DNA of 64,000 bases. Origin: an uncultured Acidobacteriota bacterium. Its GTDB lineage: Bacteria > Acidobacteriota > Polarisedimenticolia > Polarisedimenticolales > Polarisedimenticolaceae. The stretch lies in assembly GCA_963824225.1 (NCBI GenBank), contig CAWGOF010000003.1, forward strand, positions 3,040,847 to 3,104,846, read 5' to 3'. The position numbers and the translations under genes were made by a program. The notes under the pieces are model-generated. The model saw only the letters and a program-made list of their open reading frames with translations. It was not told the DNA's origin and ran no database searches. This document shows positions 3,140 through 24,702 of this stretch, one piece after another. Every line of letters begins with the position of its first letter. Position 1 is the first letter of the stretch.

Positions 3140-5416
3140 GTGGAAGACGACCGTCGAGAGTCGGCGCCGGCCGGAGACCGGACCTGGGTCCAGGGCTCGG
3201 GCGCGAGCGCCGCGCGCACGGACGAGACGATCGGCAACTACCGTGTGCTGCGCACGCTCGGCGAGGGCGGAATGGGCCTGGTCTACGAGGCCGAGCAGGT
3301 CCGCCCGGTCCGCCGGCGCGTGGCGCTGAAGGTCATCCGCACCGGGCTCGAGGGGGACGACATCCGCCTGCGCTTCGAGTCCGAGCGCCAGGCGCTGGCG
3401 CTGATGGATCACCCGGCGATCGCCCGCGTGTTCGACGCCGGGGTCACGGCCGAGGGTCGACCGTTCTTCGCCATGGAGCTGGTCGACGGCGTGCCGATCA
3501 CGGAGCTGTGCGACCGCGAGCGGCTCGACCTGAAGGAGCGGTTGCGCCTCTTCGCCCTGGTCTGCGACGGCGTCCAGCACGCGCACCAGAAGGGGATCAT
3601 CCACCGCGACATCAAGCCATCGAACGTCCTGGTCGCCGGGTCGGGCGCCGAGCGCTCGATCAAGATCATCGACTTCGGTGTGGCCAAGGCCACGACCGAG
3701 CGCCTGACCGACCGGACGTTCATGACCGAGATGGGCCAGCTCGTCGGCACGCCGCAGTACATGAGCCCCGAGCAGGCCGACATGCGCGGCCTGGACATCG
3801 ACACGCGGACCGACGTGTACCTGCTCGGCACGCTGCTCCACGAGCTGCTCACGGGCTGCCTGCCGTTCGACCCGCGGCTGCTCCACGAGCGCGGCCTGAC
3901 CGAGTACCGCCGGCAGGTGGTGGAGGTCGACCCGCTGCGCCCGAGCGAGCGGCTGGCCAAGCTCGAGCCCGCGGCGGCGCGCGAGGCCGCGCAGCTCCGC
4001 TCGACCGAGCCACTGGCGCTCGTGCGCGCGCTGCGCGGCGATCTCGACGCGATCACGGTCAAGGCGCTCGAGAAGGACCGGGCGCAGCGCTACGCCTCGG
4101 CGTCCGAGCTCGCCGCAGACGTCGGGCGGTTCCTGCGCAACGAGCCGGTGACGGCGACGCCGCCGAGCGGCCTGTACCAGCTGCGGAAGTTCGCCCGGCG
4201 CCATCGCGTGGGCGTCGCCTTCGCCTCGGTCGTGGTCGTGCTGCTCGCCGGTTTCGGCGTGTCGATGGCGGTCTACGCCTCGGCCCTCGCGCGGGCGCGC
4301 GATCGCGCGGAGAGCCAGACCCAGGCCGCGAACCAGGTGGCGGGCTACCTGGTCGACCTGTTCGACAGCAGCGATCCGGAGAAGGCGGACCGCTCGACCG
4401 TGACCGTCCTCCAGGTCCTGCACCAGGGCCGGGACCGGATCAAGGACCTCGCCGGGCAGCCGGTGCTCCAGGCCCGGATGCTGCGCACGATGGGCGAGGT
4501 GTACACGAGCGCCGGATTCCTCGAGGAAGCGCGCCCGCTCCTCGAGGATGCGCTGCGCATCAGGCGGGAGCAGCTAGAGCGCGAGCAACAGGGGGTCACC
4601 GCGCTCGACGTGGCGGAGGCCGAGACGAGCCTGGCCGGCCTGCTCGTGCAGCTCGGGGAATACGACCGCGTGCAGTCGCTCTACGCGGACGCGCTGGCCA
4701 CGCGCGAAGCCGAGCTCGGTCCGAACGACCTCGAGGTCGCGCGGAGCATGACCAACCTGGCGAACATCTTGGGCCTGACCGGCCGGGACGCAGAGGCGGA
4801 GGAGCTGCACCGGAAGGCGTTCGAGATCCGCGAGAGAACGCTCGAGCCGGACGACCCCGAGATCGCGACGAGCCGGGCGAACCAGGCGATGCACCTCGAG
4901 CGCGCGGGCAACTACGCCGAGGCGCGACCGCTCTACGAGCGAGCGCTGGCCACCTGGCGCCGGGTCGACCCGCCGAACGTCCCGCGGACGCTCGAGCGGC
5001 TCGGTTGCGTCGCCGAGGCCGAGGGCGACCTGCCGACCGCCGTTCGTTACCACGAGCAGGCGCTCGAGCTGCGCCGCTCGATCTACGGGAGCGATCACAG
5101 CGACGTGGCCAAGAGCCTGCTCGCGCTCGCGACGCTGAGCGCGCGGCAGGGCGACACGGCTCGGGCGACGGCGCTCCACGACGAGGCGCACGCGATCTAC
5201 GAGCGCGCGCACCAGCTCGACACGCCGATCGTCCAGTACCAGGAGGCGGGCTACCTGGCGACGGTCGGCCGCACGGCCGAGGCCGTGGAGCTTCTGCGCC
5301 TGGCGGTCGTCGACGGCGGCTACGCGAACGCGAACGAGCTCCTGCGCGACGTGCGCTTCCGCCCGCTCGCGGCAGATCCGGGGTTCCAGGCCATCGTCGC
5401 CGCCGCCAAGAAGTAA
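3140..5416 (+). CDS. Ser/Thr protein kinase with C-terminal TPR repeats
   Basis: 758 aa; GEGGMGLVYEA...ALKVI...HRDIKPSNVLV...DFGVAK...PQYMSPE kinase motifs, TM segment, then multiple TPR-like repeats (AEAEELHRKAFEIRE... etc.). Confidence 0.85.
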   Translation: MEDDRRESAPAGDRTWVQGSGASAARTDETIGNYRVLRTLGEGGMGLVYEAEQVRPVRRRVALKVIRTGLEGDDIRLRFESERQALALMDHPAIARVFDAGVTAEGRPFFAMELVDGVPITELCDRERLDLKERLRLFALVCDGVQHAHQKGIIHRDIKPSNVLVAGSGAERSIKIIDFGVAKATTERLTDRTFMTEMGQLVGTPQYMSPEQADMRGLDIDTRTDVYLLGTLLHELLTGCLPFDPRLLHERGLTEYRRQVVEVDPLRPSERLAKLEPAAAREAAQLRSTEPLALVRALRGDLDAITVKALEKDRAQRYASASELAADVGRFLRNEPVTATPPSGLYQLRKFARRHRVGVAFASVVVVLLAGFGVSMAVYASALARARDRAESQTQAANQVAGYLVDLFDSSDPEKADRSTVTVLQVLHQGRDRIKDLAGQPVLQARMLRTMGEVYTSAGFLEEARPLLEDALRIRREQLEREQQGVTALDVAEAETSLAGLLVQLGEYDRVQSLYADALATREAELGPNDLEVARSMTNLANILGLTGRDAEAEELHRKAFEIRERTLEPDDPEIATSRANQAMHLERAGNYAEARPLYERALATWRRVDPPNVPRTLERLGCVAEAEGDLPTAVRYHEQALELRRSIYGSDHSDVAKSLLALATLSARQGDTARATALHDEAHAIYERAHQLDTPIVQYQEAGYLATVGRTAEAVELLRLAVVDGGYANANELLRDVRFRPLAADPGFQAIVAAAKK

Positions 5417-5474
5417 AACGGGGACACTCTTCGTTTCCACCCCAAATGGGGCAGAAACCAAGAGTGTCCCCGCT
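5415..5474. repeat. palindromic repeat family 2 (GGGGACACTCT...AGAGTGTCCCC), copy A
   Basis: aaaacggggacactcttcgtttccaccccaaatggggcagaaaccaagagtgtccccgc; nested inverted repeats; related copies at 22385 and 24638. Confidence 0.8.
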
Positions 5475-5478
5475 TCCG

Positions 5479-7395
<1,917 letters not shown>

Positions 7396-7520
7396 GGGTC
7401 GGCAGCTCTCCCCTGCAGGTGGCGTCGGCGGAGCCAGCTTCCCGGGGCTGGTCCCGGCGTCCCCTAATCTACCGCGGTCGGGCGCGGGCGGCGGAACCGC
7501 GGGGTCGAGGACGCGAAAAA

Positions 7521-7569
7521 AGCGCGGAGGCGGATTCCCCCTGAGGTCACCGCCTCCGCGAACAGGGGA
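7521..7569 (-). terminator. intrinsic-terminator-like hairpin in leader between sigma54 promoter B and the activator gene
   Basis: minus-strand reading: GCGGAGGCGG-(16 nt loop)-CCGCCTCCGCG followed by CTTTTTTCGCG; same stem sequence as hairpin at 14712-14745. Confidence 0.55.
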
Positions 7570-7628
7570 GTGTGGATGAAGCGACGTCGATGGTTGCGGC
7601 ATTTCGAATTCCCTCGGCTCCTGGAAGC

Positions 7629-7644
7629 AGCAAGGCAAATGCCA
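7629..7644 (-). promoter_or_regulatory. sigma54 (-24/-12) promoter B
   Basis: minus-strand TGGCATTTGCCTTGCT = GG-N10-GC matching TGGCAC-N5-TTGCW consensus; ~235 nt upstream of activator start. Confidence 0.6.
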
Positions 7645-7695
7645 GAGCGCCACGCGCGCAAAACCCAGCGAATCCTTGGCTGCGGGGCGGGGAGC

Positions 7696-7813: not shown

Positions 7814-7888
7814 TCAGCGGATGTAGCTCTTGCGGGGCGGAAGGGCGACGGACTCGGCACCGGCTTTGATCTGGCTCTTGGTCTTCAT
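7814..7888 (-). CDS. 24-aa peptide, copy 1 of 6 (MKTKSQIKAGAESVALPPRKSYIR)
   Basis: ATG at 7886-7888 preceded by GGAGAGA; TGA stop; unit of a 100-bp tandem repeat. Confidence 0.6.
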   Translation of the reverse strand: MKTKSQIKAGAESVALPPRKSYIR

Positions 7889-7935
7889 GGCATCTCTCCG
7901 TTTTGCGTTCGGCGTTTGTGTTCGTTCGTTCCATC

Positions 7936-8010
7936 TCAGCGGATGTAGGTCTTGCGGGGCGGAAGGGAAACGGACTCGGCACCGGCTTTGATCTGGCTCT
8001 TGGTCTTCAT
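7936..8010 (-). CDS. 24-aa peptide, copy 2 (MKTKSQIKAGAESVSLPPRKTYIR)
   Basis: ATG 8008-8010 preceded by acGAGGAGaacgcc; TGA stop. Confidence 0.6.
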   Translation of the reverse strand: MKTKSQIKAGAESVSLPPRKTYIR

Positions 8011-8034
8011 GGCGTTCTCCTCGTCTGTTCGGCG

Positions 8035-8109
8035 TTAGCGGATGTAGCTCTTGCGGGGCGGAAGGGAAACGGACTCGGCACCGGCTTTGATCTGGCTCTT
8101 GGTCTTCAT
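8035..8109 (-). CDS. 24-aa peptide, copy 3 (MKTKSQIKAGAESVSLPPRKSYIR)
   Basis: ATG 8107-8109 preceded by GAGGAG 8 nt upstream; TAA stop. Confidence 0.6.
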   Translation of the reverse strand: MKTKSQIKAGAESVSLPPRKSYIR

Positions 8110-8134
8110 GGCGTTCTCCTCGTTTCGTTCGGCG

Positions 8135-8209
8135 TTAGCGGATGTAGGTCTTGCGGGGCGGAAGGGAAACGGACTCGGCACCGGCTTTGATCTGGCTCTT
8201 GGTCTTCAT
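8135..8209 (-). CDS. 24-aa peptide, copy 4 (…PPRKTYIR variant)
   Basis: ATG 8207-8209 preceded by GAGGAG; TAA stop. Confidence 0.6.
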   Translation of the reverse strand: MKTKSQIKAGAESVSLPPRKTYIR

Positions 8210-8234
8210 GGCGTTCTCCTCGTTTCGTTCAGCG

Positions 8235-8309
8235 TTAGCGGATGTAGCTCTTGCGGGGCGGAAGGGAAACGGACTCGGCACCGGCTCTGATCTGGCTCTT
8301 GGTCTTCAT
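8235..8309 (-). CDS. 24-aa peptide, copy 5 (MKTKSQIRAGAESVSLPPRKSYIR; K8R variant)
   Basis: ATG 8307-8309 preceded by GAGGAG; TAA stop; one substitution (ccggctctga) changes K to R. Confidence 0.6.
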   Translation of the reverse strand: MKTKSQIRAGAESVSLPPRKSYIR

Positions 8310-8334
8310 GGCATTCTCCTCGTTTCGTTCGGCG

Positions 8335-8409
8335 TTAGCGGATGTAGCTCTTGCGGGGCGGAAGGGAAACGGACTCGGCACCGGCTTTGATCTGGCTCTT
8401 GGTCTTCAT
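8335..8409 (-). CDS. 24-aa peptide, copy 6 (first transcribed; MKTKSQIKAGAESVSLPPRKSYIR)
   Basis: ATG 8407-8409 preceded by AGGAGGcccacg; TAA stop. Confidence 0.6.
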   Translation of the reverse strand: MKTKSQIKAGAESVSLPPRKSYIR

Positions 8410-8452
8410 CGTGGGCCTCCTTTCTTTCTTGTTTGGCCACGCCTCCTGATAG

Positions 8453-8468
8453 AGCAATGGCGATGCCA
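8453..8468 (-). promoter_or_regulatory. sigma54 (-24/-12) promoter C driving the six-peptide array
   Basis: minus-strand TGGCATCGCCATTGCT (GG-N10-GC), ~45 nt upstream of peptide copy 6 ATG; nearly identical to promoter A at 14620-14635. Confidence 0.65.
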
Positions 8469-8562: not shown

Positions 8563-10713
8563 CTACGGATGGGCGATCACGAGGAGCGTCGGCGCGCGCT
8601 CGAGCACGCAGGTCATGCAGCGGCGCAGGCTCTCGGGGTCGAGCGCGGCGAAGCTCTCGTCGAGCACGACGAGCTCGGCGCGCTGGAGCAGCGCGCGGGC
8701 GATGTACACGCGGCTGCGCTCGCCGTGCGAGAGCTGCCAGCCGGTCTCGCCGACCATCTGCAGCAGGCCCGCGGGCATGCGATCGAGGAGCGGGCCGAGG
8801 CCCAGCTCGCGGCACACCTTGTCCGCCTCGGCCAGGTCGTCGACGTGGGCCGGCCAGCCGCGGCCCATCAGCAGGTTGAACGCGAGCGTTCCTGTGAGCA
8901 CGTGGTTCTCGTGGAACTGCGGCGCCGTGGCGATGCGCGAGCGCCAGGCCGGGATGCCGAGCGTCGCCCGATCGAGGCCGCCGAGGAGCACGAGCCCCGA
9001 TCCGGGCTGGCGCAGGCCGGCGACGATCGAGGCCAGAGTCGACTTCCCGCCGCCCGATGGCCCCTCGAGCAGCACGCGGTCGCCGGGATCGATGCGCAGC
9101 GAGCAGCCGCGGAGCACGGGCTCGCCGCGGTCGACGTAGCGGAACACGACGTCCGACGCCGAGACGAGCGGCCCCGCCGCGTCCGCCGCGGCGGCGCCCT
9201 TCGCGCGCTCCGCGGCGGCGGTCGCCGCAGCGGCGGCGCGGGGCGGGCGGACGATCTGGGGTCGCGCGGCCGCGCGGAAGAGCGGGGCGATCGCGCGCCA
9301 GGCCACGATCGCCCCGGCGACGTGCCGCGCGCCGCCGGCGAGGCGCGAGAGCGCCTGGTGCGCCAGGAACACGCCGCCGAGCCCGATCGCGAGCTCCTCG
9401 ACCGACGCCGTGCCGCGCACGAACGCCGGCGCGAGGCCGGCGAGACCGACGGCGAGCCAGCCGGTCGGGATCGCGAGCGACAGCGTGGCGCCCGTGCGAT
9501 CGAGATGCCGCGACCGCGCGAGCAGCCGATCGAGCGCCTCGTCCTCGCCCGCATGCCAGCGCGAGCGCGACTCCTGGGCCAGGCGCGTGCGATGGCCGAC
9601 GAGCCGCTCGACGAGGTCGTGCGTCAGGCCGACGCGCGTCCCGGTCCAACCCTCGCGTGCCCCGAGGTAGCGCAGGCCGACGAGCAGGGTCAGCGCGACC
9701 CAAGAGAACAGCGCGAGGACGTGGAGCACGCCCCCGGCCCCGAACGCCAGGACCAACGCCGCGGCGAAGATCTCGATCCCGGCGAGGATGCCGACGAGAC
9801 CCCCGCTGATGGCGAGCGACTCGACCGCTTCGGACTCGATCACCTGGCCGAGGAGCTGGCCCACGCCGCGATGCCGGATCTCCTCGGGCTCGAGGCGCAG
9901 CGCGGCGGCGAGCAGCCGGCGCTTGATCAGACCGCCCGCGGCGAGGGCGACGAGGCCCTGGCACCAGCTCGCGAGCATGCCCAGCGGAACGAGCGTCAGG
10001 AGGATCAGGGCCCAGGCGACGAGCCAGCCCGCATCGAGCCGGCCCTCGAGCGCGCCGCGGCCGATCGTCCACCACGACAGGATCCACAGCGCGCAGCTCG
10101 ACGCGTAGGCCAGGACCAGGCCGCCGAGGGCGCGCGGGAGGCCGATCCCGCGCAGCTGGTCGAGGAAGTCGGCCGACGGCGGAAGCGCGATGCTCCACAC
10201 GCCGTCGATCGGCTCCGTGCCGAGCCGCTCGCCGAGAAGCGCGTTCACCGAGCGCGCGCGGCGACCGTGTGGCACCCCGGCGCTCTCGAGGAGCCGGGCG
10301 ATCTCCACGCGCGTCGAGGCTTCGAGCGCTGAGACCTTCTCGCCGAGGACGTCGTCGATCGCGACCCACACGCGCGATCCGTCGGGCGCGAGGAGCTCGA
10401 CGCGGCGGCGGCTCCCGCGCAGGACGACGAGAAGCGCGGCGACAGCAGCGCCGATGCGCACGAGCGCCGGTCCGCTCGTGCGGAGCCACCGCGCGAGCTC
10501 GGCGTGCGACAGGCCGAGCTCGTCGATCTCGATGCCGATCCAGGCCGCGGCCTCGTCGAGCCAGCGCTCGAGCGCTTTGCGGTCGCGCGGCGGAGGGCCC
10601 GCATCCCCGAGCGCCCGCGGCTCGAGACCGGCGTCCGCGGTGAGCGCCTCGAGCGCATCGCCCAGGCGGTCGAACGGCCAGGCGTACGCCGCGATCCCCG
10701 TCGCGCGGCTCAC
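8563..10713 (-). CDS. ABC transporter, fused permease/ATP-binding protein (no peptidase domain)
   Basis: six-TM region then ABC ATPase: GPSGGGKST Walker A, LSHGERSRVYIARAL signature, VLDESFAALD Walker B; probable GTG start overlapping stop of upstream PCAT gene (GTGA). Confidence 0.7.
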   Translation of the reverse strand: MSRATGIAAYAWPFDRLGDALEALTADAGLEPRALGDAGPPPRDRKALERWLDEAAAWIGIEIDELGLSHAELARWLRTSGPALVRIGAAVAALLVVLRGSRRRVELLAPDGSRVWVAIDDVLGEKVSALEASTRVEIARLLESAGVPHGRRARSVNALLGERLGTEPIDGVWSIALPPSADFLDQLRGIGLPRALGGLVLAYASSCALWILSWWTIGRGALEGRLDAGWLVAWALILLTLVPLGMLASWCQGLVALAAGGLIKRRLLAAALRLEPEEIRHRGVGQLLGQVIESEAVESLAISGGLVGILAGIEIFAAALVLAFGAGGVLHVLALFSWVALTLLVGLRYLGAREGWTGTRVGLTHDLVERLVGHRTRLAQESRSRWHAGEDEALDRLLARSRHLDRTGATLSLAIPTGWLAVGLAGLAPAFVRGTASVEELAIGLGGVFLAHQALSRLAGGARHVAGAIVAWRAIAPLFRAAARPQIVRPPRAAAAATAAAERAKGAAAADAAGPLVSASDVVFRYVDRGEPVLRGCSLRIDPGDRVLLEGPSGGGKSTLASIVAGLRQPGSGLVLLGGLDRATLGIPAWRSRIATAPQFHENHVLTGTLAFNLLMGRGWPAHVDDLAEADKVCRELGLGPLLDRMPAGLLQMVGETGWQLSHGERSRVYIARALLQRAELVVLDESFAALDPESLRRCMTCVLERAPTLLVIAHP

Positions 10714-13379
10714 GCGTTCTCTCGGACGCGCCCGTCGTCCAGGCGAAACCTGCGCCACGAGCGCGTGCTCTCGAGCCCGTCCCGCAGCTCGCGCTCGGTG
10801 TCGAGGAGCGCGCCGAGGCGCGAATCGGGCTTGCGTGTCAGCTCTGAGGGTGCTCCGTCCTCGACGATCCGTCCGTTCTCGACGACGAGGACGCGCTCGA
10901 AGGATGCGGCGTCCGAGACGTCGTGGGTGATGCACACGAGCGTCGCCGCGCGCCATTCCTTGCGCACGGCGGCGAGGAGCCTTGCGCGCTGCGCCCGATC
11001 GAGGCCGCGGAACGGCTCGTCGAGGATCGCCAAGCGCACGTCCTCGCGCAGGAGCGCGCGGCCGAGGCGCACGCGCTGGCCCTCACCGCCCGAGACGAGC
11101 GCCCCGCCTTCGCCGAGCGCGGTCTGCAGGCCGTCGGGCAGCCGCTCGACGAGCTTGCGCATCTCGGCCACCTCGAGCGCGCGGCCGACGGCGGTGCCGT
11201 CGGCGCCGGGCCCGCCGTACTGCAGGTTGTCGAGGAGCGAGCGGTTCCAGATCTGCACGGCGGGATCGACCCACGCGGTTCTCTCGCGGAGCCAGGCGAT
11301 GCGCGGGGCATCGAGCGGAGCGCCGTCGACCGTGATCGCACCTGAAGACGCCCGGTGCCAGCCGAGGAGCAGGCCGACGAGCGTCGACTTGCCGGCGCCC
11401 GACGGGCCGACGATCGCCACGTGTTCGCCGGCTCCGATGTCGAGCCGCACGTTGGTCAGGATCTCGTGGCCCGCAGCGCGCACGCTCACGCCGTCGAGCT
11501 CGATCCGTACGCCAGAAGAAGAAGTGGGGTCAGGTCTCGGGGTCAGGTCTTTCGACCTGACCCGCAGACCTGACCCCACCTCGTCCTCCATCTCCTCCGG
11601 CGCACCGAGCGGCTCGAGGAGGCGGAGCGTGAGGTTGCGCACCTCGGGGTACTGGCGCAGCGCGAGAGCCAAGCTCTGTCCGAGCGCCGGGAGGTGCAGG
11701 GCCCAGAAGACGAGGAGCAGGACGACCGACGCATCGCCGCCACGCGCGGCATGGGCCAGGACGATCCACGCCGCAAGTCCGAACCCGCACACGCCCCCGA
11801 GCGCCTCGACGCCGACGAGGGCGCTCTGAAGCGCGACGCCGGCGCGGGCCCACTTCGCGAGAAGCGACTCGTGCTCGCGCCTGACGGCGCGCTCGGCCCG
11901 ATGGCAGCGGATCGGGACGAGGCCGAGAAGGGCGTCGAAGTAGAACCGGCTCAGCGCGCCGACGTGCGTCCGCACGCGCATGTCGCGCTCGACGAGGAGC
12001 GGCTGCGCGCACAGGGGCAGCGCGACCGAGACGCTCGCCAGGATGCAGGCCAGGGGCGCGCTCGCCGGGTCGAGCCATGTGATCCCGGCGACGGTGAGCA
12101 CGAGGCCGAAGAGCGCATGGAGCGCCTGGCGTCCGATCTCGGGCAGCTCGCGAATCTGATGCAGGCTGTGGCTGCGCTCGGCCATGTCCGACGCGAGACG
12201 GCTGTGGAAGTACCGGTCGGGCAGACGCGGGATCTTGCGCAGGAACGCGACGCGCAGGCGCAGCTCGAGCTTGCGCCCAAGTCTCAGGACACCGGCGGCG
12301 AGCGGGATCTCGAGGAGCGCGAGCGCGGTAAGGAACAGCAGCACGGCCGCCGTCGCCGCGAGGCGCTGCCGCGCAAGCCCGAGGTCCGACCACACGTGCA
12401 GCAGGCCGCGAAACACGAGCGCCTCGACGAGCACGCCCGCGGCGGCGAGGCCGAGCGCGGAGACGAGGACCGTCGGCGCAAGGAGGCCGTCCGCGCGCAG
12501 CAGGCGCAGCAGCTCGCGGCCCGCTCGCGCGGGCCGCTCCTCGAGCGCCGAGGCGAGCTCCACGGAGGGGTCAGGTCTCGGGGTCAGGTCTTTCGACCTG
12601 ACCCCGTTCACCCTGACAAGCACGATGCCGCTCGCGGCGACCCGCTCCTGCCCCTCGGGCCCGGCCTCGGCTGGCTTGACCGACCAGCATCCGGCCGGGA
12701 TCGCCGCACCGTCGGCGTTCTCGACGAGCGCGTCGAGGACGCGCAGACACTCGGTCCCGCGCGCCAGCCCGCCCGACCGCACGATCGCGGTCACCGCCCG
12801 CGTCGCCGCGTCGAGCGTGGCGAGCTTGCGCCAGCCCTCGTCGGTCGACGCTGCGCCGATGCGCTCGGCGATCGTCGTGCGCTCGAGCCCCAGGGCCGAA
12901 AGCCTCGAGCCGAGCGGCTCGAGGAACGCAGGTGAGCCGGCCCACTCGCGCCAGTACGCCGCATCGACCACCGACTCGTGGATGTAGGCGTCGTCGAGGA
13001 GCCTCTCCCCCGAGATCCACTTGCGCCCTGTGGCGGGGTCCATCACCTGAACCAGGCCGCCGTGCTTGCGCCAGGCCACGACGAAATGCGTGGCTCCGCT
13101 CGGCGAGCGCACGACGAGCAGCGCCGGGAGCTGCGCCCGACCTGGGAGGAGCAGATGATCGGGCGGGATCAGGATCTGCTCGGCCTCGAGCCCCGCGCGC
13201 TGCGCGACCTCTTCGAGCGTGTCGATCGACGTCCCGTCGAGGTCGGTCTGGCACGCCTCGCGCAGCCGGCCGTAGCTCGCGTGGATCCCGAACCCCTGGA
13301 GCAGGCACGCCAGGGCCGCGGGCCCGCAATCCATCGCCGACGTCTGGACGATCTCGGGCGCGAAGTACCGCGGGATCAT
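10710..13379 (-). CDS. peptidase-containing ABC transporter (PCAT): N-terminal C39 peptidase + permease + ATPase
   Basis: 889 aa; N-terminal QTSAMDCGPAALACLLQGFGI C39 cysteine motif; TM domain; GPSGAGKST Walker A, LSGGEGQRVRLGRAL signature, ILDEPFRGLD Walker B; two in-frame palindromic repeat insertions. Confidence 0.8.
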   Translation of the reverse strand: MIPRYFAPEIVQTSAMDCGPAALACLLQGFGIHASYGRLREACQTDLDGTSIDTLEEVAQRAGLEAEQILIPPDHLLLPGRAQLPALLVVRSPSGATHFVVAWRKHGGLVQVMDPATGRKWISGERLLDDAYIHESVVDAAYWREWAGSPAFLEPLGSRLSALGLERTTIAERIGAASTDEGWRKLATLDAATRAVTAIVRSGGLARGTECLRVLDALVENADGAAIPAGCWSVKPAEAGPEGQERVAASGIVLVRVNGVRSKDLTPRPDPSVELASALEERPARAGRELLRLLRADGLLAPTVLVSALGLAAAGVLVEALVFRGLLHVWSDLGLARQRLAATAAVLLFLTALALLEIPLAAGVLRLGRKLELRLRVAFLRKIPRLPDRYFHSRLASDMAERSHSLHQIRELPEIGRQALHALFGLVLTVAGITWLDPASAPLACILASVSVALPLCAQPLLVERDMRVRTHVGALSRFYFDALLGLVPIRCHRAERAVRREHESLLAKWARAGVALQSALVGVEALGGVCGFGLAAWIVLAHAARGGDASVVLLLVFWALHLPALGQSLALALRQYPEVRNLTLRLLEPLGAPEEMEDEVGSGLRVRSKDLTPRPDPTSSSGVRIELDGVSVRAAGHEILTNVRLDIGAGEHVAIVGPSGAGKSTLVGLLLGWHRASSGAITVDGAPLDAPRIAWLRERTAWVDPAVQIWNRSLLDNLQYGGPGADGTAVGRALEVAEMRKLVERLPDGLQTALGEGGALVSGGEGQRVRLGRALLREDVRLAILDEPFRGLDRAQRARLLAAVRKEWRAATLVCITHDVSDAASFERVLVVENGRIVEDGAPSELTRKPDSRLGALLDTERELRDGLESTRSWRRFRLDDGRVRENA
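11525..11578. repeat. palindromic repeat family 1, copy 2, in-frame inside PCAT gene (encodes ...EVGSGLRVRSKDLTPRPDPTSSS...)
   Basis: ggggtcaggtctcggggtcaggtctttcgacctgacccgcagacctgacccca located between permease and ATPase domains without interrupting the ORF. Confidence 0.8.
12567..12605. repeat. palindromic repeat family 1, copy 3, in-frame inside PCAT gene (encodes ...GVRSKDLTPRPDP...)
   Basis: ggggtcaggtctcggggtcaggtctttcgacctgacccc between C39 peptidase and permease domains. Confidence 0.8.
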
Positions 13380-17896: not shown

Positions 17897-19015
17897 ATGC
17901 GTCGCGCCGCGCGCCCGCTCGTGTGCCTCGCGATCCTCGCCGGCGGGCTCGTCGTCGCCGAGATCGTCGCGCGGACGACCCACCCCGAGGCTCGGCCCCG
18001 CGCGATCGTCGAGCAGCTCGAGCGCGAGCGCAAGCGGTTGCGGACGCCCGACGCCGAGTTTCACCACGTCGGCGAGGGGATCTTCCACCTCGACTTCCCG
18101 CCCGCGGGTGCGGGACCGGCGCCGCGGGTCCTCGTCGTCGGCGACTCGTTCGCCATGGGCCACGGCGTGGGGATCGATGCGCGCTTCGGCGCGCGTCTCG
18201 GCCAGCGGATGCGGGGCATCGCCGAGGTCGACGTGCTCGCGGCGACGAGCTACTCGCCGATCGTGTACCGCAACATCGTGCGCAAGGCGGTGGGGCTGAA
18301 CCGCTACGCCTGTGTCGCCGTGTTCGTCGACCAAACCGACCCGGCGGACGACGTCGTCTATCGCAACGACCTCGTGGGGGAAGACGCGCACGGGTTCGAC
18401 GTGGCCATGATGCGCGAGCGCCTCGCCGTCCTCGGGGCGACGTACGACCGGATGGAGGCCGGCCTCACCGGCCTGCGCGGCCTCCCGCGGCAGCTGGCCC
18501 TGGTCAACGTAGTGTTCCCGCCGCCCTCGATCATCGGTGCGCTCGCGGCCGAGAGCCCGCACCGCCGGTACGTCGAGCTGTCCTACGCGCGGCTGCAACT
18601 GACGCGGACCTTCGACGAGGCGCCCGAGTCGAGCCTCGCTCGCACGATGACGGCGAGCGTGCTCCAGCACCTCGACGAGACGGTGTCGCTCGCACGGGCG
18701 AACGGGGCGCAGGTCATCCTCGCGGCCAACCCGTGGGAGGACCAGGTGTCGAAGTCTCCGCGCGTCCCGCGGGCCTCCTCGGGCCCGTACCCGCGGGAGA
18801 ACCAGCTCGAGCGGCTCCTCGTTGAGCGCTACGGCAAGCTCTCGGGCGTCGTCGTCCTCGAGCTGACCGCCGCGTTCCGCGCCGCGCCCGACCCGTCGCG
18901 CCTGTTCCTCGACGTTCCGGCACACGAGGTGCACTGGAACGCCGAAGGCCACGAGCTCGTCGCCGCCGTCCTGTGGGGTCAGGTCTCGGGGTCAGGTCTC
19001 AGGGTCAGGTCTTAG
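17897..19015 (+). CDS. SGNH/GDSL-type hydrolase family protein
   Basis: signal/TM N-terminus, RVLVVGDSFAMGHGV GDS(x) motif; last 12 codons and stop are supplied by palindromic repeat copy 4. Confidence 0.55.
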   Translation: MRRAARPLVCLAILAGGLVVAEIVARTTHPEARPRAIVEQLERERKRLRTPDAEFHHVGEGIFHLDFPPAGAGPAPRVLVVGDSFAMGHGVGIDARFGARLGQRMRGIAEVDVLAATSYSPIVYRNIVRKAVGLNRYACVAVFVDQTDPADDVVYRNDLVGEDAHGFDVAMMRERLAVLGATYDRMEAGLTGLRGLPRQLALVNVVFPPPSIIGALAAESPHRRYVELSYARLQLTRTFDEAPESSLARTMTASVLQHLDETVSLARANGAQVILAANPWEDQVSKSPRVPRASSGPYPRENQLERLLVERYGKLSGVVVLELTAAFRAAPDPSRLFLDVPAHEVHWNAEGHELVAAVLWGQVSGSGLRVRS

Positions 19016-19026
19016 GGTCTGACCCC
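18975..19026. repeat. palindromic repeat family 1, copy 4
   Basis: ggggtcaggtctcggggtcaggtctcagggtcaggtcttagggtctgacccca. Confidence 0.85.
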
Positions 19027-19049
19027 ATCAACGTTATCCTGGTCGAGCC

Positions 19050-21410
19050 GTGATCGGCCGGGAGCTCAACCAGTACCGGATCGTGGCCCAGCTCGGCAAG
19101 GGCGGGATGGGCGAGGTGTACCTGGCCCACGACACGCAGCTCGACCGCAAGGTCGCGCTGAAGATCCTTCCGCCCGAGATGGCCGCATCGCCCCAGCGCG
19201 TCGAGCGGTTCAAGCGCGAGGCCCGGGCCGTCGCTGCGCTGACCCACCCGAACATCGTCACGATCCACTCGGTCGAGGAGGCGCGGGGCCTGCACTTCCT
19301 GACGATGGAGCTCGTGACCGGGAAGACGCTCGACGCGCTGATCGCGCAGGACGGGCTGCCGCTCGAGCGGATCTTCGACGTCGCGATCCCGCTCGCCGAC
19401 GCGCTGAGCGAGGCCCACGCCAAGGGCATCACGCATCGCGACCTCAAGCCGGCGAACGTGATGGTCACGGACGACGGCCGCGTCAAGGTCCTCGACTTCG
19501 GCCTGGCCAAGTTCCACGAGTCTGCCGGCGCGGACGACGAGCGCGCCCCGACACGCACGCTGACCGAGGAAGGCGCGCTCGTCGGCACGATGCCCTACAT
19601 GTCGCCCGAGCAGGTCAAGGGCGCGCCGGTCGACCATCGGTCGGACATCTTCTCCCTGGGCGTGATCCTGTACGAGATGGCGACCGGCAAGCGCCCGTTC
19701 GGCGGGGCCTCGTCGGCCGAGCTGATCTCGGCGCTCCTGCGCGACGATCCGCCGGCGGTGAGCGACGTCAACGCGTCGGTCCCCCGGCACCTCGGGCGGA
19801 TCATCCGGATGTGCCTGGAGAAGGACCCGGCCCAGCGCTACCAGTCGGCCGCCGACGTGCGCAACGAGCTGCGAGCGCTGCGGATGGAAGTCGCCTCGGG
19901 CGTGACCGAGGCCCGGGCGCGGCCGCGCGTGTCCCGCACGCGCGCGTTACCCCTCGTCGTGCTCGGCGTCGTGGCCGTCGCCGTCCTCGCGGCGCTCGTG
20001 GCCTGGCAGCTCCGTGGGCAGCGCAAGATCGCCACACCCGAGCAGGCGCAGGTGTCGGTCGCCGTGCTCCCGTTCCGCAACATGAGCGGCGACGCGGCGC
20101 TCGCGTTCCTCGCGCTCGCGATCCCGGACGAGGTCACGACAGCGCTCAGCCGCACTCCCGGCCTGTCGCTGCGCCCCTTCTCGAGCACGACGCGGTACAC
20201 GGGAGACGATGTCGACGTCCGGGGGGCCGGTCGCGAGCTCGGCGCGTCGACCGTGGTCACCGGGCAGTTCTTCCGCCAGGGTCAAGATCTGCGTCTGACG
20301 CTCGAGGCGGTCGACGTCGAAAAGAACGAGGCGATCTGGCACGACGGGGTGACCGTCCGAGCCGACGACCTGCTCGCGCTCCGCAGCCAGGTGTCCGATC
20401 GAATCCGCTCCGGTCTCGTTCCCGACCTCGTCGGGACCGACGCGGGCGCCGCCGGGACCCAGCCGTCGAACCCCGAAGCCTACGATCTCTACTTGCGCAG
20501 CCTCGCCATCCCGAACGATCCGGAGCCTGGGCGCGAGACGATCCGGATGCTCGAGCGCGCCGTGGCGCTCGACCCCAAATACGCGCCGGCCTGGACCGAG
20601 CTCGGCGAGCGGTACAGCTTCGAGGCGGCCTATGGCGCGGGCGGCGAGGCGTTCTACCCCAAGGCTATCGACGCGCTGCGCCGGGCGATCGATCTCGACC
20701 CGAACCTGCCCGTGCCCGCGGGTCTTCTGCTGCAGATCGAGGTCGAGAGCGGACATCTCGAGCAGGGCTACGACACGGCCCGCGAGCTCCTCGAGCGGTT
20801 CCCGCGGAGCGCCGCTCTCCACTTCTCGATGTCCTACGTCCTGCGCTACGGCGGCTTGTTCGACGAAGCGGCGCGCGAGTGCAACACGGCCTATGGCCTC
20901 GATTCGACCGATCCGGGCTTTCGTTCGTGTGGCATCACGTTCTACATGCTCGGGGACTACGAGCGCGCCGAGGTGTTCTTCGAGCTCTCGGACTCGCAGT
21001 TCAGCGTGATCCAGCGCTGGAACAGCCTGATGAGGCAGCACAAGGACGCGGAGGCGCTCGTGATGCTCGATCGCCTACCAGCCTCGCCCATGCGCGAGTT
21101 CGGGCGAGCGTGCCTCAGCGGTGCCAAGCCCGCGGAGCTGGCTGTGCTCGCCGCAGATGTCGCGAAGCAGACGGCAGACCAACGCGACGGCGAATCCCAG
21201 TACATATACGGCACGATCTTCAGCCGCTGCGGCCAGCGACAGCTCGCGCTCGAGCGGCTCGCGCTCGCCGTCGAGCGCAACTACTGCGCCTATCCGCTGA
21301 TGGAGTCGGACCCGCTGCTCGAGAGCATGCGTGGCGATCCGGAGCTCGCCAAGATCGTCGTCGCCGGCCGCGCCTGCCGGCAAAGGTTCGAGAAGCATCG
21401 TCAAACGTAG
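19050..21410 (+). CDS. Ser/Thr protein kinase with TM segment and C-terminal TPR-like domain
   Basis: 786 aa; GKGGMGEVYLAHD...ALKIL...HRDLKPANVMV...DFGLAK...MPYMSPE. Confidence 0.85.
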   Translation: MIGRELNQYRIVAQLGKGGMGEVYLAHDTQLDRKVALKILPPEMAASPQRVERFKREARAVAALTHPNIVTIHSVEEARGLHFLTMELVTGKTLDALIAQDGLPLERIFDVAIPLADALSEAHAKGITHRDLKPANVMVTDDGRVKVLDFGLAKFHESAGADDERAPTRTLTEEGALVGTMPYMSPEQVKGAPVDHRSDIFSLGVILYEMATGKRPFGGASSAELISALLRDDPPAVSDVNASVPRHLGRIIRMCLEKDPAQRYQSAADVRNELRALRMEVASGVTEARARPRVSRTRALPLVVLGVVAVAVLAALVAWQLRGQRKIATPEQAQVSVAVLPFRNMSGDAALAFLALAIPDEVTTALSRTPGLSLRPFSSTTRYTGDDVDVRGAGRELGASTVVTGQFFRQGQDLRLTLEAVDVEKNEAIWHDGVTVRADDLLALRSQVSDRIRSGLVPDLVGTDAGAAGTQPSNPEAYDLYLRSLAIPNDPEPGRETIRMLERAVALDPKYAPAWTELGERYSFEAAYGAGGEAFYPKAIDALRRAIDLDPNLPVPAGLLLQIEVESGHLEQGYDTARELLERFPRSAALHFSMSYVLRYGGLFDEAARECNTAYGLDSTDPGFRSCGITFYMLGDYERAEVFFELSDSQFSVIQRWNSLMRQHKDAEALVMLDRLPASPMREFGRACLSGAKPAELAVLAADVAKQTADQRDGESQYIYGTIFSRCGQRQLALERLALAVERNYCAYPLMESDPLLESMRGDPELAKIVVAGRACRQRFEKHRQT

Positions 21411-21461
21411 GGGTCAGGTCTCGGGGTCTGACCCCGAGACCTGACCCCGAGACCTGACCCC
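21411..21461. repeat. palindromic repeat family 1, copy 5
   Basis: ggggtcaggtctcggggtctgaccccgagacctgaccccgagacctgacccc; overlaps stop codon of PP2C gene. Confidence 0.85.
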
Positions 21462-22369
21462 TAGCCTCGCTTGATGACGACGAAGCTGATGTCGTCCTTG
21501 GCCGGGGCGAAGGCGAGGATCGAGCGCTTGAGCGCTTCGGCGATCTCCCCGGCCGAGAGGTCGCGGGTCCGCGCCAGCTCCTGCTCGAGCAGGTCGGGGA
21601 CGTACTCATCGTCCCCGTGCTCGTACAGGCCGTCCGTCGCCAAGAGCAGGATGTCCCCCGCCCCGAGAAGCGACAGCTCGTTCACCGAGTAGCGCTCCTT
21701 GAACCGCGGGGGGTCGATCAGCCGCGCCCGGTCGACGTCATCGACCGAGGGCACGATCCCGATCGGGGGGTAGCGCTTCAAGCTCGCCTCGGCGATGTCG
21801 GCGATCCGGGCATACTTGCGGGAGAACACGATCGGCGGTGGATGGCCCGCCGAAATGAACCGGAACACGCCCGAGGTCGAGATCTCGCCGTAGATCATGG
21901 TGAAATACTTGTGGATCGCGGACGACTGGTAGAACCGCGTGTTGATGTGCTCGAAGAGCCGCGTCGTGATCTCCCCGTGCTGGTCCATCTCGTAGATCGC
22001 GCCGAGGAGGAACGCCTGGTGCAGCATCGCGCCGATCATCGCGTCGGTCATGCGGTGCCCCGAGACGTCGGCGACCAGGATCCCCGCGCGCTCGCGCGTC
22101 CGGTGGAGCATCTCGACGAGCGCGGCGTTGTTGTCCGCCTCGGCCCGCGCGATCCGCGCCTCGAGGTCGAAGCGCTTGCGGAAGTCGATGTAGATGATGT
22201 GGTCGCCGCCGATCCGGCCCCCGAGCGGTATCGACACCCCGGCGATGTCGAGCCCGTCGAGCTCGGGGATCTCGCCCGCCGAGGGGTTCAGGCAGCGCGC
22301 GATCTCCTCGAAGTTGTCGAGCTCCGAGACCAGCTCGCGCTGCGCCGCTCCGTCGATCTCGTGTTCCAT
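21461..22369 (-). CDS. PP2C-family Ser/Thr phosphatase (SpoIIE-like)
   Basis: start MEHEIDGAAQRE (ATG 22367-22369); ...GVSIPLGGRIGGDHIIYIDF...LVADVSGHRMTDAM...LLLATDGLYEHGDDE... PPM-type motifs; longer ORF-track start lies inside repeat family 2 and was rejected. Confidence 0.7.
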   Translation of the reverse strand: MEHEIDGAAQRELVSELDNFEEIARCLNPSAGEIPELDGLDIAGVSIPLGGRIGGDHIIYIDFRKRFDLEARIARAEADNNAALVEMLHRTRERAGILVADVSGHRMTDAMIGAMLHQAFLLGAIYEMDQHGEITTRLFEHINTRFYQSSAIHKYFTMIYGEISTSGVFRFISAGHPPPIVFSRKYARIADIAEASLKRYPPIGIVPSVDDVDRARLIDPPRFKERYSVNELSLLGAGDILLLATDGLYEHGDDEYVPDLLEQELARTRDLSAGEIAEALKRSILAFAPAKDDISFVVIKRG

Positions 22370-22384
22370 GACCACCTCAAGATA

Positions 22385-22476
22385 CCAAAACGGGGACACT
22401 CTCCGTTTCTGCCCCAAATGAGGCAACACGCCCTCTGCCCCAAATGGGGTGAAAAATGAGAGTGTCCCCGTTTCTG
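22385..22476. repeat. palindromic repeat family 2, copy B (partially duplicated internal unit)
   Basis: aaaacggggacactctccgtttctgccccaaatgaggcaacacgccctctgccccaaatggggtgaaaaatgagagtgtccccgtttctgc; its ATGAGAGTGTCCCCGTTTCTGC end provides the start codon of the VWA gene. Confidence 0.8.
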
Positions 22477-24684
22477 CTCGTGCTGCTCCTGGTCGGCAGC
22501 ACAGCGGACGCGCAGAGGAAGGAAGACTCGGGGATCGTCGAGACGACGCGGATCCGCCTCATGGCCGTGCGGTTCCGCGTCGCGCCGAAGGCCGAGGCGC
22601 CGCGCGACGCGTGCACGAAGCTCACGCGCGCCAACCTGTCGATCCGCGTGCGCGGCCAAGCGGTCGAGCCGAGCGCCATCGTCTCGCTCGCGAGGGACGA
22701 GCGCCCGATGCTCCACGCGTTCCTGATCGACCGCAGCGGCAGCATGGCCGACAAGCTCGACCTGACCCGCCGCGCGGTTCACACGTACATCCAAAGGCTG
22801 AGACCGGGCCTCGATCGCGGGATGGTCGTGTTCTTCGACGAGGACGTCATCCTCGCCTCTCCCGAAACCTCGGACCCCAAAGCGCTCGACCGGGCGGTCG
22901 ACAGCATCGTCCTGGGGTCGAGCACGGCGATCTTGGACGCGCTCTACGCGACGATCGGCGAGCTTCAGGCCCAGCTCGAGCGCCCGATCGTCCTCCTGCT
23001 CTCGGACGGCGTCGACACGGCGAGCATCGCGACCCAGGACGACGTCCTCGCCCGCGCGGCCGAGCGGCCCGACCTGGCCATCTTCCCGATCGGCGTCAAC
23101 CTCCCCGACATCTCCTCTCGCGGCCCGGGCCCGATCACGCCGAAGAAGTTCCTCGACAACCTGGCGCGCCACACGGACGGCGAGTTCCTCAACGTCCCGA
23201 CCGCCGGAGGCTTGGCCTCGGCCTACGACCGCGTGCGCGACCTCCTCGACTCCGAGTGGGAGGTCGTCGTCGCCGATCCCGACCCCAACCTCGACCCCGA
23301 GGACCCCAAGGTGCGCATCACGGGCAAGCCGTGCTCGATCCGGATCCTCGGCCAGGGCGGCGACGAGCCGCGGGAAAGCAAGAAGGAAACCGAGAAGCCC
23401 AACCTGGCCCCGCCGAACCCGCGGTGTGAGGCGAGCATCCACTGGCTCCCGCGCCAGTCGGCGCGCCTCGGCCCGCGCCTCGGTGCGGACTGGGCTGCGG
23501 AGACCACGACGACGGGCATCCGCGGCTGCGTCGTCGATCTCACCACGGACGACGGCCAGCTCTACGACAGCCAGGAGGTCGAGGGCGCCTGGTTCAACGG
23601 CTGGCGCGAGATCGGGAGCCGCCCGTTCGAGATCGATGCGCCCGCGATCGTCGACCTCCCGACGCGTCCCGAGAGCGCGCTCGACACGATCGCGCGCGAG
23701 CTGCTGAAACACACGGGACCGGTGCCCGACCCCGGCCCGCGCCAGATCCCGATCGAGCGCCACGCCCGGCCGTTCAAGGACCTGCCGTTCCTGTGGAACG
23801 GGCGCACCGCGTTCGCCGCACGGTCAGACCTGGCGCTCGCGCTCGCAGAGATCCCCGAGTACGCGGCGTACACCCGCACCCGCACGGAAAAGGAGGTCAA
23901 CCGCCTCCTCGACGATGAAGCTGCGCGCATCGTCCGCACGAGCAAGGGAATGGCACGCGACCGCATGCGCGACGCCCTCGCCGCCTCGCCCGAGGGCCAG
24001 GCGCTCCTCGCGCGGGCCGAGAACCCGGGGCCGCGCGAGCTCGAGCGGCACCTCGCGGCGTGGATCGGGGACATACCGGTTGCCGACGTGTTCCGAGACT
24101 GGGAGCTCCAGGCGATCGCAAGGGTCCTCGACGGCACAGCCGACCCGGATCCGCCGTTCGACGACGCCTATCGAGCCGCGTACGGCGTGTTCTTCGTCCC
24201 GTCCTATGCCCGGCTCCTCGCGCCGCTCGTCCTGGGCAAGGACCCCAAGACCGGCGCGATCGGCATGTGGCGCTTCGTGCTCCCGCGCACGGTGTGGATC
24301 GGCCCGCGCAAGAGGGACTTCGACGACCCCGAGTCCCGCCGCGTGCCGATGGACCTCGTGCCCGACCGCCCGCTCGGCCTGCTGCTCGCGCGCAAGATCG
24401 CCGAAGAAACGCGCGGAACAGGGCTCGCACCCAGGCGGCTGACCTACGAGCCCCTGGTAAAACCGAAGCAGTTCGATCCGGGGCGAGCGTTCACCGACGT
24501 GCGCGTGAGCCTGTACCTCGTCGATCCGAAGGGCCGCGACCTCCTCGTTATTGCGGATCTGGTTCGCGACGACGACCACCCGGTGGTGCGCGCCGCGGAC
24601 GTCCAATCCCCGAGCTTGAAGGACCTGTCCGCGGCAATAAAGGGGACACTCTTGGTTTCTGCCCCAAATGAGGCAGGAAACTAG
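22456..24684 (+). CDS. secreted von Willebrand factor A (VWA) domain protein
   Basis: 742 aa; signal peptide MRVSPFLLVLLLVGSTADA; MIDAS motif LIDRSGSMADKL...LLSDGVDT; first 7 and last 14 codons derive from repeat family 2 copies. Confidence 0.7.
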   Translation: MRVSPFLLVLLLVGSTADAQRKEDSGIVETTRIRLMAVRFRVAPKAEAPRDACTKLTRANLSIRVRGQAVEPSAIVSLARDERPMLHAFLIDRSGSMADKLDLTRRAVHTYIQRLRPGLDRGMVVFFDEDVILASPETSDPKALDRAVDSIVLGSSTAILDALYATIGELQAQLERPIVLLLSDGVDTASIATQDDVLARAAERPDLAIFPIGVNLPDISSRGPGPITPKKFLDNLARHTDGEFLNVPTAGGLASAYDRVRDLLDSEWEVVVADPDPNLDPEDPKVRITGKPCSIRILGQGGDEPRESKKETEKPNLAPPNPRCEASIHWLPRQSARLGPRLGADWAAETTTTGIRGCVVDLTTDDGQLYDSQEVEGAWFNGWREIGSRPFEIDAPAIVDLPTRPESALDTIARELLKHTGPVPDPGPRQIPIERHARPFKDLPFLWNGRTAFAARSDLALALAEIPEYAAYTRTRTEKEVNRLLDDEAARIVRTSKGMARDRMRDALAASPEGQALLARAENPGPRELERHLAAWIGDIPVADVFRDWELQAIARVLDGTADPDPPFDDAYRAAYGVFFVPSYARLLAPLVLGKDPKTGAIGMWRFVLPRTVWIGPRKRDFDDPESRRVPMDLVPDRPLGLLLARKIAEETRGTGLAPRRLTYEPLVKPKQFDPGRAFTDVRVSLYLVDPKGRDLLVIADLVRDDDHPVVRAADVQSPSLKDLSAAIKGTLLVSAPNEAGN

Positions 24685-24702
24685 GAGTGTCCCCGTTTCT
24701 GC
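24638..24702. repeat. palindromic repeat family 2, copy C
   Basis: ataaaggggacactcttggtttctgccccaaatgaggcaggaaactaggagtgtccccgtttctgc; contains stop of VWA gene. Confidence 0.8.

Follow-up and report, generated by a model that had tools for sequence, protein, structure and literature searches.

Hairpin repeats at gene boundaries of an uncultured Acidobacteriota bacterium and the predicted protein ends that lie within them

How does a gene come to have its start codon, or its last codons and its stop, inside a repeated sequence? This question is raised by a 64,000-nucleotide stretch of DNA from an uncultured Acidobacteriota bacterium of the Polarisedimenticolaceae (GenBank assembly GCA_963824225.1, contig CAWGOF010000003.1, positions 3,040,847 to 3,104,846 of the forward strand; the whole stretch is called the window below). 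Three copies of a short inverted repeat lie there at the boundaries of genes for a Ser/Thr kinase, a VWA-domain protein and an AsmA-family protein. A preliminary description treated them as MITE-like (miniature inverted-repeat transposable element-like) and proposed that they carry ready-made translation starts and ends, which could rapidly remodel the termini of secreted proteins. Comparison of orthologous sites with and without the element (loci from other assemblies are cited by L numbers) demonstrates repeat-written tails in the predicted kinase and VWA proteins and a repeat-written start in the predicted VWA protein. We propose, with a probability of roughly 0.6, that the three copies are a non-autonomous repeat of the REP/REPIN type (REP, repetitive extragenic palindromic), from the class of Y1-flanking repeats with the motif GGGG[AT][CG]A[CG] ("TIRYT/TIRtrons"), and that the gene ends were remodelled as a by-product of its insertion.

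Structure and position of the three copies

The three copies are real and identically oriented (5415-5476, 22387-22477 and 24637-24702, designated copies A, B and C). Their common part is an 11-bp box, GGGGACACTCT, which occurs six times in the window with at most one mismatch, compared to 1.22 expected occurrences; six or more were found in none of 100 shuffles. The box starts form three inverted pairs (5420/5461, 22392/22459 and 24642/24684), and the copies align end to end (46 nt at 76-83% identity). Each copy is a strong hairpin with inverted boxes GGGGACACTCT / AGAGTGTCCCC and the layout (A)AAAC-GGGGACACTCT-nn-GTTTC(T/C)(G/A)CCCC-AAAT-GRGGCAGRAAC-nn-AGAGTGTCCCC-G(T/C)TTC, the loop CCCC-AAAT-GRGG being present in all three. 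In the prediction, each copy forms one long hairpin irrespective of the strand (-38 to -58 kcal/mol, z -6.9 to -9.6).

Copy A (5415..5476, plus strand) consists of AAAAC, the left box (5420-5430), GTTTCCACCCC-AAAT-GGGGCAGAAAC, the right box (5461-5471) and GCTTC, with a predicted dG of -39.8 on the plus and -52.5 on the minus strand. It fills the 62-nt gap between the convergent genes for the kinase and a sigma-54 activator. Copy B (22387..22477, plus strand) contains AAAAC, the left box (22392-22402), a doubled inner segment, the right box (22459-22469) and GTTTCTGC, and spans nearly the entire 86-nt gap between the VWA gene and a divergent neighbour on the minus strand, which Pfam identifies as a SpoIIE/PP2C phosphatase gene (21461..22369, ATG at 22369). 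The internal duplication noticed earlier in copy B was confirmed: it comprises 26 nt (GCCCCAAATGRGG at 22411 and 22437), with the loop-proximal segment CTGCCCCAAATGRGG at 22409-22423 and 22435-22449. It is also present in copy B of locus L001 and is therefore old. Copy C (24637..24702, plus strand) is located at the junction of the VWA and AsmA genes and is built of ATAAA, the left box (24642-24652), an inner stem-loop, the right box (24684-24694, one mismatch) and GTTTCTGC. At least seven further copies of the same subfamily were found in a metagenome scan, and half-elements (single units) are present in L002, L123, L124 and L126. None of the Rfam covariance models reached its gathering score anywhere in the window, a BLAST search of a plasmid collection with copy A gave no match, and no sigma-70-like promoter consensus was matched in the region scanned.

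Hairpins at gene boundaries may also be kept by the host as signals, i.e., as a bidirectional terminator, an mRNA-stabilising hairpin or a protein-binding site, so that their overlap with open reading frames (ORFs) would be incidental and mobility would have no current role. Such a function, which is compatible with our explanation, has been proposed for REPs (PMC3733652). It would suit the exact positioning of very stable hairpins between convergent (copy A), tandem (copy C) and divergent genes (copy B), their retention at the orthologous sites of relatives whose proteins are 69-86% identical, and the terminator-like sequence GTTTTACTTCTT that follows copy A on the minus strand. However, this T-rich tail accompanies only the minus strand of copy A, and a scan for the terminator consensus flagged none of the three copies. 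Copy B is upstream of both its flanking genes, where a terminator would have no role. Furthermore, relatives without the element exist for all three sites (L134 and L135 have none in ~40 kb), and multiple copies of the same box are found in phyla that are not related, where the interiors are unrelated as well and where it encloses a transposase gene, which points to enzyme-driven spread. We therefore consider a host-selected signal unlikely as the sole explanation.

Gene ends within the repeat

The VWA gene (22456..24684, plus strand; 742 aa; PF00092, PF13519) is predicted to start with an ATG (22456-22458, plus strand) in the right arm of copy B, one base 5' of the right box, and its codons M-R-V-S-P are written by AAATG-AGAGTGTCCCC. 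An in-frame TGA (22450-22452) within copy B leaves no VWA start upstream of this ATG. The protein is conserved in comparison to its orthologs from residue ~27 onward (GIVETTRIRL), and the only alternative in-frame starts ahead of the conserved part are GTG 22462 and GTG 22480, so that all three candidates are situated in the right box or at most 11 nt from it. Starting at ATG 22456, the predicted protein begins with MRVSPFLLVLLLVGSTADA|Q, a normal Sec signal peptide. A start at GTG 22480 would remove the n-region; a charged n-region, which the orthologs have, is kept only with 22456 or 22462 (signal peptides and ribosome-binding sites were judged by eye). An independent gene call in another assembly of the same sequence uses ATG 22456 as well. 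These limits place the start codon, the first 4-5 codons and a presumptive ribosome-binding GGGGTGA in the right half of copy B.

It is true that many REPs lying "inside" N-termini are in reality extragenic and result from misannotation, as stated in PMC3733652, and the longest AsmA ORF of the window is such a case (see below). Nevertheless, it is highly unlikely that the donated VWA start is an annotation artefact of this kind, with the real start elsewhere and the element as an untranslated leader: the TGA and the conserved part of the protein confine the start to the three candidates, and only two of them give a signal peptide with a charged n-region. In L001 (VWA 85% identical), copy B has the same structure and the same ATG with conserved surroundings.

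The loci L005 and L132 (VWA 59-60% identical) do not have the element at site B. There, CTCAAGATACC, which adjoins the element in the window, runs directly into coding sequence, and the VWA frame is open across the divergent SpoIIE start, whereas the same upstream frame ends inside the element in the window. The likely start at the empty site, a conserved TTG (GTG in L005), results in a longer n-region (...KIPRS(R/G)R(P/S)V(S/P)FALA...). The longer open frame of the empty sites implies that the insertion removed the ancestral VWA start and that an ATG of the repeat took its place. Note that the plausible VWA starts overlap the 5' end of the SpoIIE gene by 10-25 nt in both loci (L005 1623-1700, L132 1006-1090), and that the public gene calls for VWA start too far downstream there.

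The proposal that the repeat supplies the ATG and the first residues of VWA thus holds as far as the location of the start region in copy B is concerned; the idea of a "ready-made" ATG does not. The consensus ahead of the right box is a stop, C-TA(A/G)-GAGTG, and A-ATG-AGAGTG is found only in copy B (in the window and L001). The triplet position between GAAAC and the right box reads CA in copy A, TA(G) in copy C, TA(A) in copy C of L001 and CTA in L122, so that the ATG is a locus-specific derivative. On the left side, the stop of the upstream long ORF (TAA, TAG or TGA) directly precedes (A)AAC-GGGG in 5 of ~10 copies of the subfamily. In the superfamily as a whole, stops cluster within 30 nt of the box with no single preferred distance to it; as this distance varies, we do not postulate that a stop is built into the whole superfamily at a fixed place.

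At the other end of the same gene, the last 14 codons (GTLLVSAPNEAGN after K) and the stop are located inside copy C, as had been described. The VWA ORF enters copy C at codon 729, the predicted C-terminal peptide is ...AAIKGTLLVSAPNEAGN, and the TAG (24682..24684, plus strand) occupies the junction of the inner stem and the right box. The same element is present at site C of L001, with TAA at the position of this stop, and in L002 (VWA 69% identical) a degenerate copy C still encodes the tail KRTLSFSAPKEVGAAE followed by a stop. In L132, there is no element at this site and VWA ends with ...AIERALAE. In L005, VWA ends with ...ALGSGLEN inside a different repeat with the ends GGGGTCAGGTCTCG...CGAGACCTGACCCC, which resembles another palindromic repeat of the window (family 1, see below). 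This family-1-like element (L005 3870-3940) is in the place of copy C and supplies the tail GSGLEN; the right flank is unchanged (GTTCTGCTACGCTC). As different repeats are found at the same VWA/AsmA junction in the window and in L005, the junction looks like a recurrent landing site for hairpin repeats. The substitutions in the tail between the window, L001 and L002 fall on all codon positions, and we see no sign of selection on the predicted tail peptide. At the level of the predicted protein, both the start of VWA and its C-terminal tail are defined by the element.

The AsmA-family gene (24716..26734, plus strand) behaves differently from what had been suggested, namely that a copy overlaps its 5' end in the same way as that of VWA. 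It starts with GTG 24716, 21 nt after the right box, without overlap with the element; an overlap exists only for the longest ORF obtained mechanically, which begins with ATG 24668 in the copy C loop. The start at GTG 24716 agrees with the gene call (672 aa) and with two orthologs (VDTKKRRRWPW versus MERKRRRWPW and MEKKRRRWPW), and in L001 an in-frame TAG prevents an extension of AsmA into the element. In L002, the degenerate copies that flank the VWA gene (9942-10003 and 12110-12165) share a diverged right arm, GGCGCCG-GGGATAGAATC-CCGCC, and both end directly at an ATG. One ATG is the VWA start, and the other is what is left of the start of AsmA, a gene that is otherwise deleted in L002. This points to homogenisation of the two copies over a distance of 2.2 kb.

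The third affected gene encodes a Ser/Thr kinase with TPR repeats (3140..5416, plus strand; Pfam). Its stop TAA (5414..5416, plus strand) is 3 nt away from the left box and is fused to AAAAC, the flank of copy A, which it partly covers; the kinase ends with ...AAAKK. In L133 (86% identical), which has GCGAAAC in this place, the kinase ORF crosses the left box, meets a TAG immediately behind it, still within the element, and ends with ...SEAKRGHS. In L134 (78% identical), site A is empty: the kinase ends with ...AAARAREDRR, the ancestral stop is ~7 codons further on, and the convergent genes overlap by 4 nt. For the sigma-54 activator, the tail differs between the filled and the empty site, and the stop (TGA, 5479..5481, minus strand), 7 nt past the right box, appears to be ancestral (CCGTCAG versus CCGTTAG in the empty site). 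Comparison of the filled with the empty site A reveals that ~20 nt were replaced and none was duplicated.

Two further expectations of the preliminary description, rapid remodelling and an effect on secreted proteins in particular, were not borne out. Copies B and C occupy the same sites in a relative with 85% identical VWA, and the tail encoded by copy C is preserved at 69% identity as well. The sharing of these copies by lineages with 15-31% divergence of VWA indicates a slow turnover. Moreover, the cytoplasmic kinase is affected too.

Element class and the link to a Y1 transposase

The assignment to a class is based on the box and on the company it keeps in other genomes. In two Verrucomicrobia-type loci from metagenome-assembled genomes (MAGs), L117 (872-1604) and L097 (2122-2854), a gene for a protein of ~210 aa lies between single units in inverted orientation, GT(G/A)A(A)-GGGGACACTCTTGTCCCC ... 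GGGGACAAGAGTGTCCCC-TT(C/T)AC. At 79% identity to each other, the two proteins share an HUH motif (MPNHVHLL) and a tyrosine motif (YIRENP). In Pfam, the L117 protein matches Y1_Tnp (PF01797, E 1.9e-7, residues 108-184). It also matches the NCBIfam model "REP-associated tyrosine transposase" (RAYT; E 2e-19), with a score of 69.8 bits that does not reach the curated cut-off of 80, and E. coli TnpA-REP (structure 4ER8). Related database entries carry the name RayT in their sources. A Y1 gene bracketed by inverted box units is the defining REP-RAYT arrangement.

Furthermore, GGGGACAC fits the motif GGGG[AT][CG]A[CG] and is present in all six arms of the three copies; GGGGTCAG of family 1 fits it too. 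Di Nocera et al. (2013; PMC3733652) describe TIRYT genes as RAYT-like genes flanked by inverted repeats with GGGGWSAS, and these repeats as families of moderate abundance that occur singly, as dimers and in clusters. Quentin et al. (2018; PMC6006769) again give the consensus, as GGGG[AT][CG]A[CG], and assign most TIRYTs to subclass 2.1 (RAYT group 1), the taxonomically least confined one. The repeat studied here resembles these TIRtrons (PMC3733652, PMC6006769) in the motif, in the occurrence of units as singles, inverted dimers and clusters, in the bracketing of a RAYT-like Y1 gene by inverted units (L117 and L097) and in a wide taxonomic spread, as for subclass 2.1. It differs in its exact 11-mer, which is shared by at least seven phyla, and in the abundance of dispersed dimers in many genomes, neither of which is mentioned in the available text of these two papers. 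In addition, the transposase of L117 is short (~210 aa) and has no C-terminal helix-turn-helix match, and no TIRYT was found in the loci of the window's lineage.

Similarly, short hairpins, inverted dimers that form a larger hairpin, insertion without target duplication, location mostly at the 3' ends of genes, retention at orthologous sites and, as far as L117 and L097 are concerned, a single-copy Y1 gene bracketed by the repeat are shared with the REP/REPIN-RAYT systems of E. coli and Pseudomonas (Nunvar 2010, Bertels & Rainey 2011, Messing 2012). In contrast to these, the window copies have at best a weak GTAG foot (GTAA in copy A, none in B and C), the stem box is another one, and the unit is longer than the classic REPs of 20-40 nt.

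As for MITE-like elements, this class is probably wrong. No direct repeat is shared by the flanks of copies A, B and C, and the comparison of filled and empty sites revealed no target-site duplication. An all-against-all comparison of ORFs in the 116 box-bearing loci fetched (~0.9 Mb) found no DDE parent with the same ends; the only shared transposase was the Y1 gene that the box flanks. The repeat shares small size, terminal inverted repeats, a location at gene boundaries and a possible influence on the expression of neighbours with bacterial MITEs such as the Correia elements of Neisseria, from which it is distinguished by the absence of a target-site duplication and of a DDE parent and by the fact that the whole element is one hairpin of ~60 nt. 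A classical MITE, i.e., an internally deleted DDE insertion sequence with GGGGACACTCT as terminal inverted repeats that moves by double-stranded cut-and-paste, hardly comes into question, for although the 11-bp inverted repeats are perfect, the element is small, half-elements exist and GGGG-initial inverted repeats presumably resemble the ends of the Tn3 family, target-site duplications are missing at all three copies, none of the box-bearing loci compared contains a longer element enclosing a DDE gene, the only bracketed gene is of the Y1 (HUH) type, and the palindrome continues past the boxes in many lineages, so that the boxes are internal to the stem.

Some other candidates were rejected. 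The large clusters of shared proteins beside the box are PSCyt/PSD/DUF1501-type paralogs, which are common in Planctomycetes-Verrucomicrobia-Chlamydiae (PVC) bacteria and Acidobacteria, and include no mobility gene; further clusters are artefactual "ORFs" representing translated repeat. Some Deltaproteobacteria/UBA2219-type copies appear to match the Illumina adapter ACACTCTTTCCCT in part; an adapter origin was dismissed, as this concerns one subfamily only and the genomic context is normal. The flanks do not fit RYYYAAC/GTTRRRY, the motif of integron attC sites.

Several points weigh against the REP/REPIN-type interpretation. The window has 3 copies per 64 kb, all inside the first 25 kb; of a REP system, many dispersed and mostly extragenic copies per genome would be expected. 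Neither the window nor the lineage loci L001-L005 and L122-L135 yielded a Y1 transposase gene. In Pfam, the L117 protein has no match to the C-terminal helix-turn-helix that is typical of TIRYT subclass 2.1, and RAYT homologs with 47-50% identity to it (Chthoniobacter, Kiritimatiellia) have unrelated repeats on their flanks. None of the window copies has the canonical GTAG foot, the respective sequences being GTAAAAC (copy A), CCAAAAC (copy B) and CAATAAA (copy C). Finally, the use of ATG 22456 and the translation of the repeat-written tail are predictions from the sequence. Because the 47-50% homologs carry other repeats, the link between box and transposase is based on two related Verrucomicrobia-type loci and the literature. 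Other repeats next to these homologs would be expected if repeat and enzyme co-evolve, and the box is specific to a subclade. The GTAG foot is present in two of the seven metagenomic copies of the subfamily (L124 and L127), and GTGA, GTAA or GTAG adjoins the box in Verrucomicrobia-type copies.

If the copies are REP/REPIN-type repeats, each would be a head-to-head dimer of one unit, (A)AAAC-GGGGACACTCT-nn-GTTTC..., which a single-copy Y1 transposase, acting in trans and postulated here for the genome of the window, would cut and move as a single-stranded hairpin. The copies would settle at gene boundaries, where they are tolerated, and would have hit the last codons of the kinase and VWA genes and the first codons of VWA. 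The interrupted ORFs would then run on to a chance stop in the repeat (T[AG][AG] before AAAC, TAG behind the left box or TA(A/G) ahead of the right one). The ATG of copy B would have come about through two point differences from the consensus, and would have restored a start and a short n-region (M-R) to the truncated VWA gene. Remodelling of protein ends would thus be a passive by-product of insertion followed by mutation, without a cargo function. In the predicted fold of copy B, GGGGUGA is paired and the AUG is at the foot of the outer stem, so that the hairpin (~-49 kcal/mol) would sequester the ribosome-binding region and the AUG of VWA; we infer from this model that transcription starts within the element or else that translation is damped. 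In copy C, a hairpin shortly before AsmA would contain the stop of VWA. Altogether, the hairpins probably influence the expression of their neighbours.

Both the element class and its effect, i.e., stops given by repeats and termini encoded by them, are already published. GTAG ends of REPs often give the TAG stop of flanking ORFs, and REPs at ORF termini are described (PMC3733652). Repeat-given stops and repeat-encoded N- or C-termini are common to GTAG REPs (PMC3733652), Rickettsia palindromic elements and enterobacterial RU/ERIC elements (Delihas 2007, PMC2759123). In the case presented here, in contrast, both ends of one gene were hit, with filled and empty orthologous sites at hand, and a start codon arose by mutation in the repeat and rebuilt the n-region of a signal peptide. 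What goes modestly beyond the literature consulted is therefore the exact 11-bp box over many phyla, the documentation of remodelling at both ends of one gene by filled and empty orthologous sites, and the predicted origin of a start codon by mutation within a repeat together with the rebuilt n-region. It is a clean example of hairpin repeats that rewrite an n-region and several C-terminal tails without destroying the genes, and the stop triplets within the repeat suggest why insertion into gene ends is tolerable. For annotation, it is relevant that gene callers put starts and stops in repeats, rightly for VWA and wrongly for the long AsmA ORF, and that element-free orthologs discriminate between the two. 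The conserved box together with a RAYT-type gene in two loci provides a handle on the sequence that such transposases recognise.

Distribution of the box and further repeats of the window

The scan for both boxes at a distance of 28-58 nt, with one genome per species, revealed the box pair in at least 116 loci of at least 43 assemblies with labels from at least seven phyla, whereas, as a rough estimate, ~2 matches of this pattern would be expected by chance in random sequence. The labels comprise Verrucomicrobiota, Acidobacteriota, Bacillota, Actinomycetota, Pseudomonadota, Planctomycetota, Desulfobacterota and others (in detail, Clostridia, Coriobacteriales, other Actinomycetota, Alpha-, Gamma- and "Delta"-proteobacteria, Deferrimicrobiaceae and Phycisphaerae); those of MAGs are as reliable as the binning. 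Among the assemblies listed, one is from an isolate (Lipingzhangella rawalii). Two MAGs labelled "uncultured Klebsiella sp." (L098, L106, L117) carry Verrucomicrobia-type genes (PSCyt/DUF1553) along with the repeats, and these labels are evidently wrong.

Between the boxes, the sequence is lineage-specific and tracks the base composition of the host (AT-rich in Clostridia, GC-rich elsewhere). The palindrome extends at least 5 bp inward in ~40% and outward in ~30% of the elements listed, and conservation next to the box is weak and limited to a T that follows it and a purine-rich stretch that precedes it. In the full-text literature, the box sequence was met only in mammalian polymerase chain reaction primers, and it is absent from the text and supplements of the REP catalogues checked. 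It is tempting to speculate that the GGGGACACTCT hairpins form one pan-bacterial family with a fixed 11-bp recognition box and an otherwise free sequence, spread horizontally with one RAYT-like clade and having a built-in bias to first and last codons, where they supply stops and, after small mutations, starts; we regard this as doubtful. If true, such a family would be a general agent of protein-terminus turnover rather than an extragenic repeat only. Dense box arrays exist as well, e.g., in a Clostridium MAG with four box pairs at a 133-bp period (L053 2420-2900) and in L042, and runs of single box units adjoin the RAYT-like gene in L117 (1594-1880).

The window also harbours the palindromic repeat family 1 (2394-2445, 11513-11577, 12554-12618, 18975-19039 and 21397-21461), which is composed of stacked 13-nt units GGGGTCAGGTCTC and their complements and has GTAG, GTGG or GGAG feet. 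Its TAG within acGTAGGGGTCAGG (21408-21410) is the stop of the ORF 19050..21410, the stop of the SpoIIE gene (21461-21463) abuts the other end of the same copy (21397-21461), and the ORF 17897..19015 ends inside the copy at 18975. All eight palindromic repeats of both families are located in the first 25 kb (GC ~0.71), and there are none in the remaining 39 kb (GC 0.64-0.69). The latter part (25000-64000) contains toxin-antitoxin pairs as well as a 94-nt segment in duplicate (42923/46652), and gives the impression of DNA that was acquired more recently and lacks the repeats of the host.

Finally, six tandem copies of a sequence with a 100-bp period and 97% identity (7814-8457, minus strand) encode a 24-aa ORF, MKTKSQIKAGAESVSLPPRKSYIR, upstream of large minus-strand ORFs. 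In the orthologous locus L134, three such 24-aa genes are found beside genes for an ABC transporter, a C39 peptidase and an HlyD-like protein. The tandem ORFs look like precursor-peptide genes of an exported-peptide cluster.

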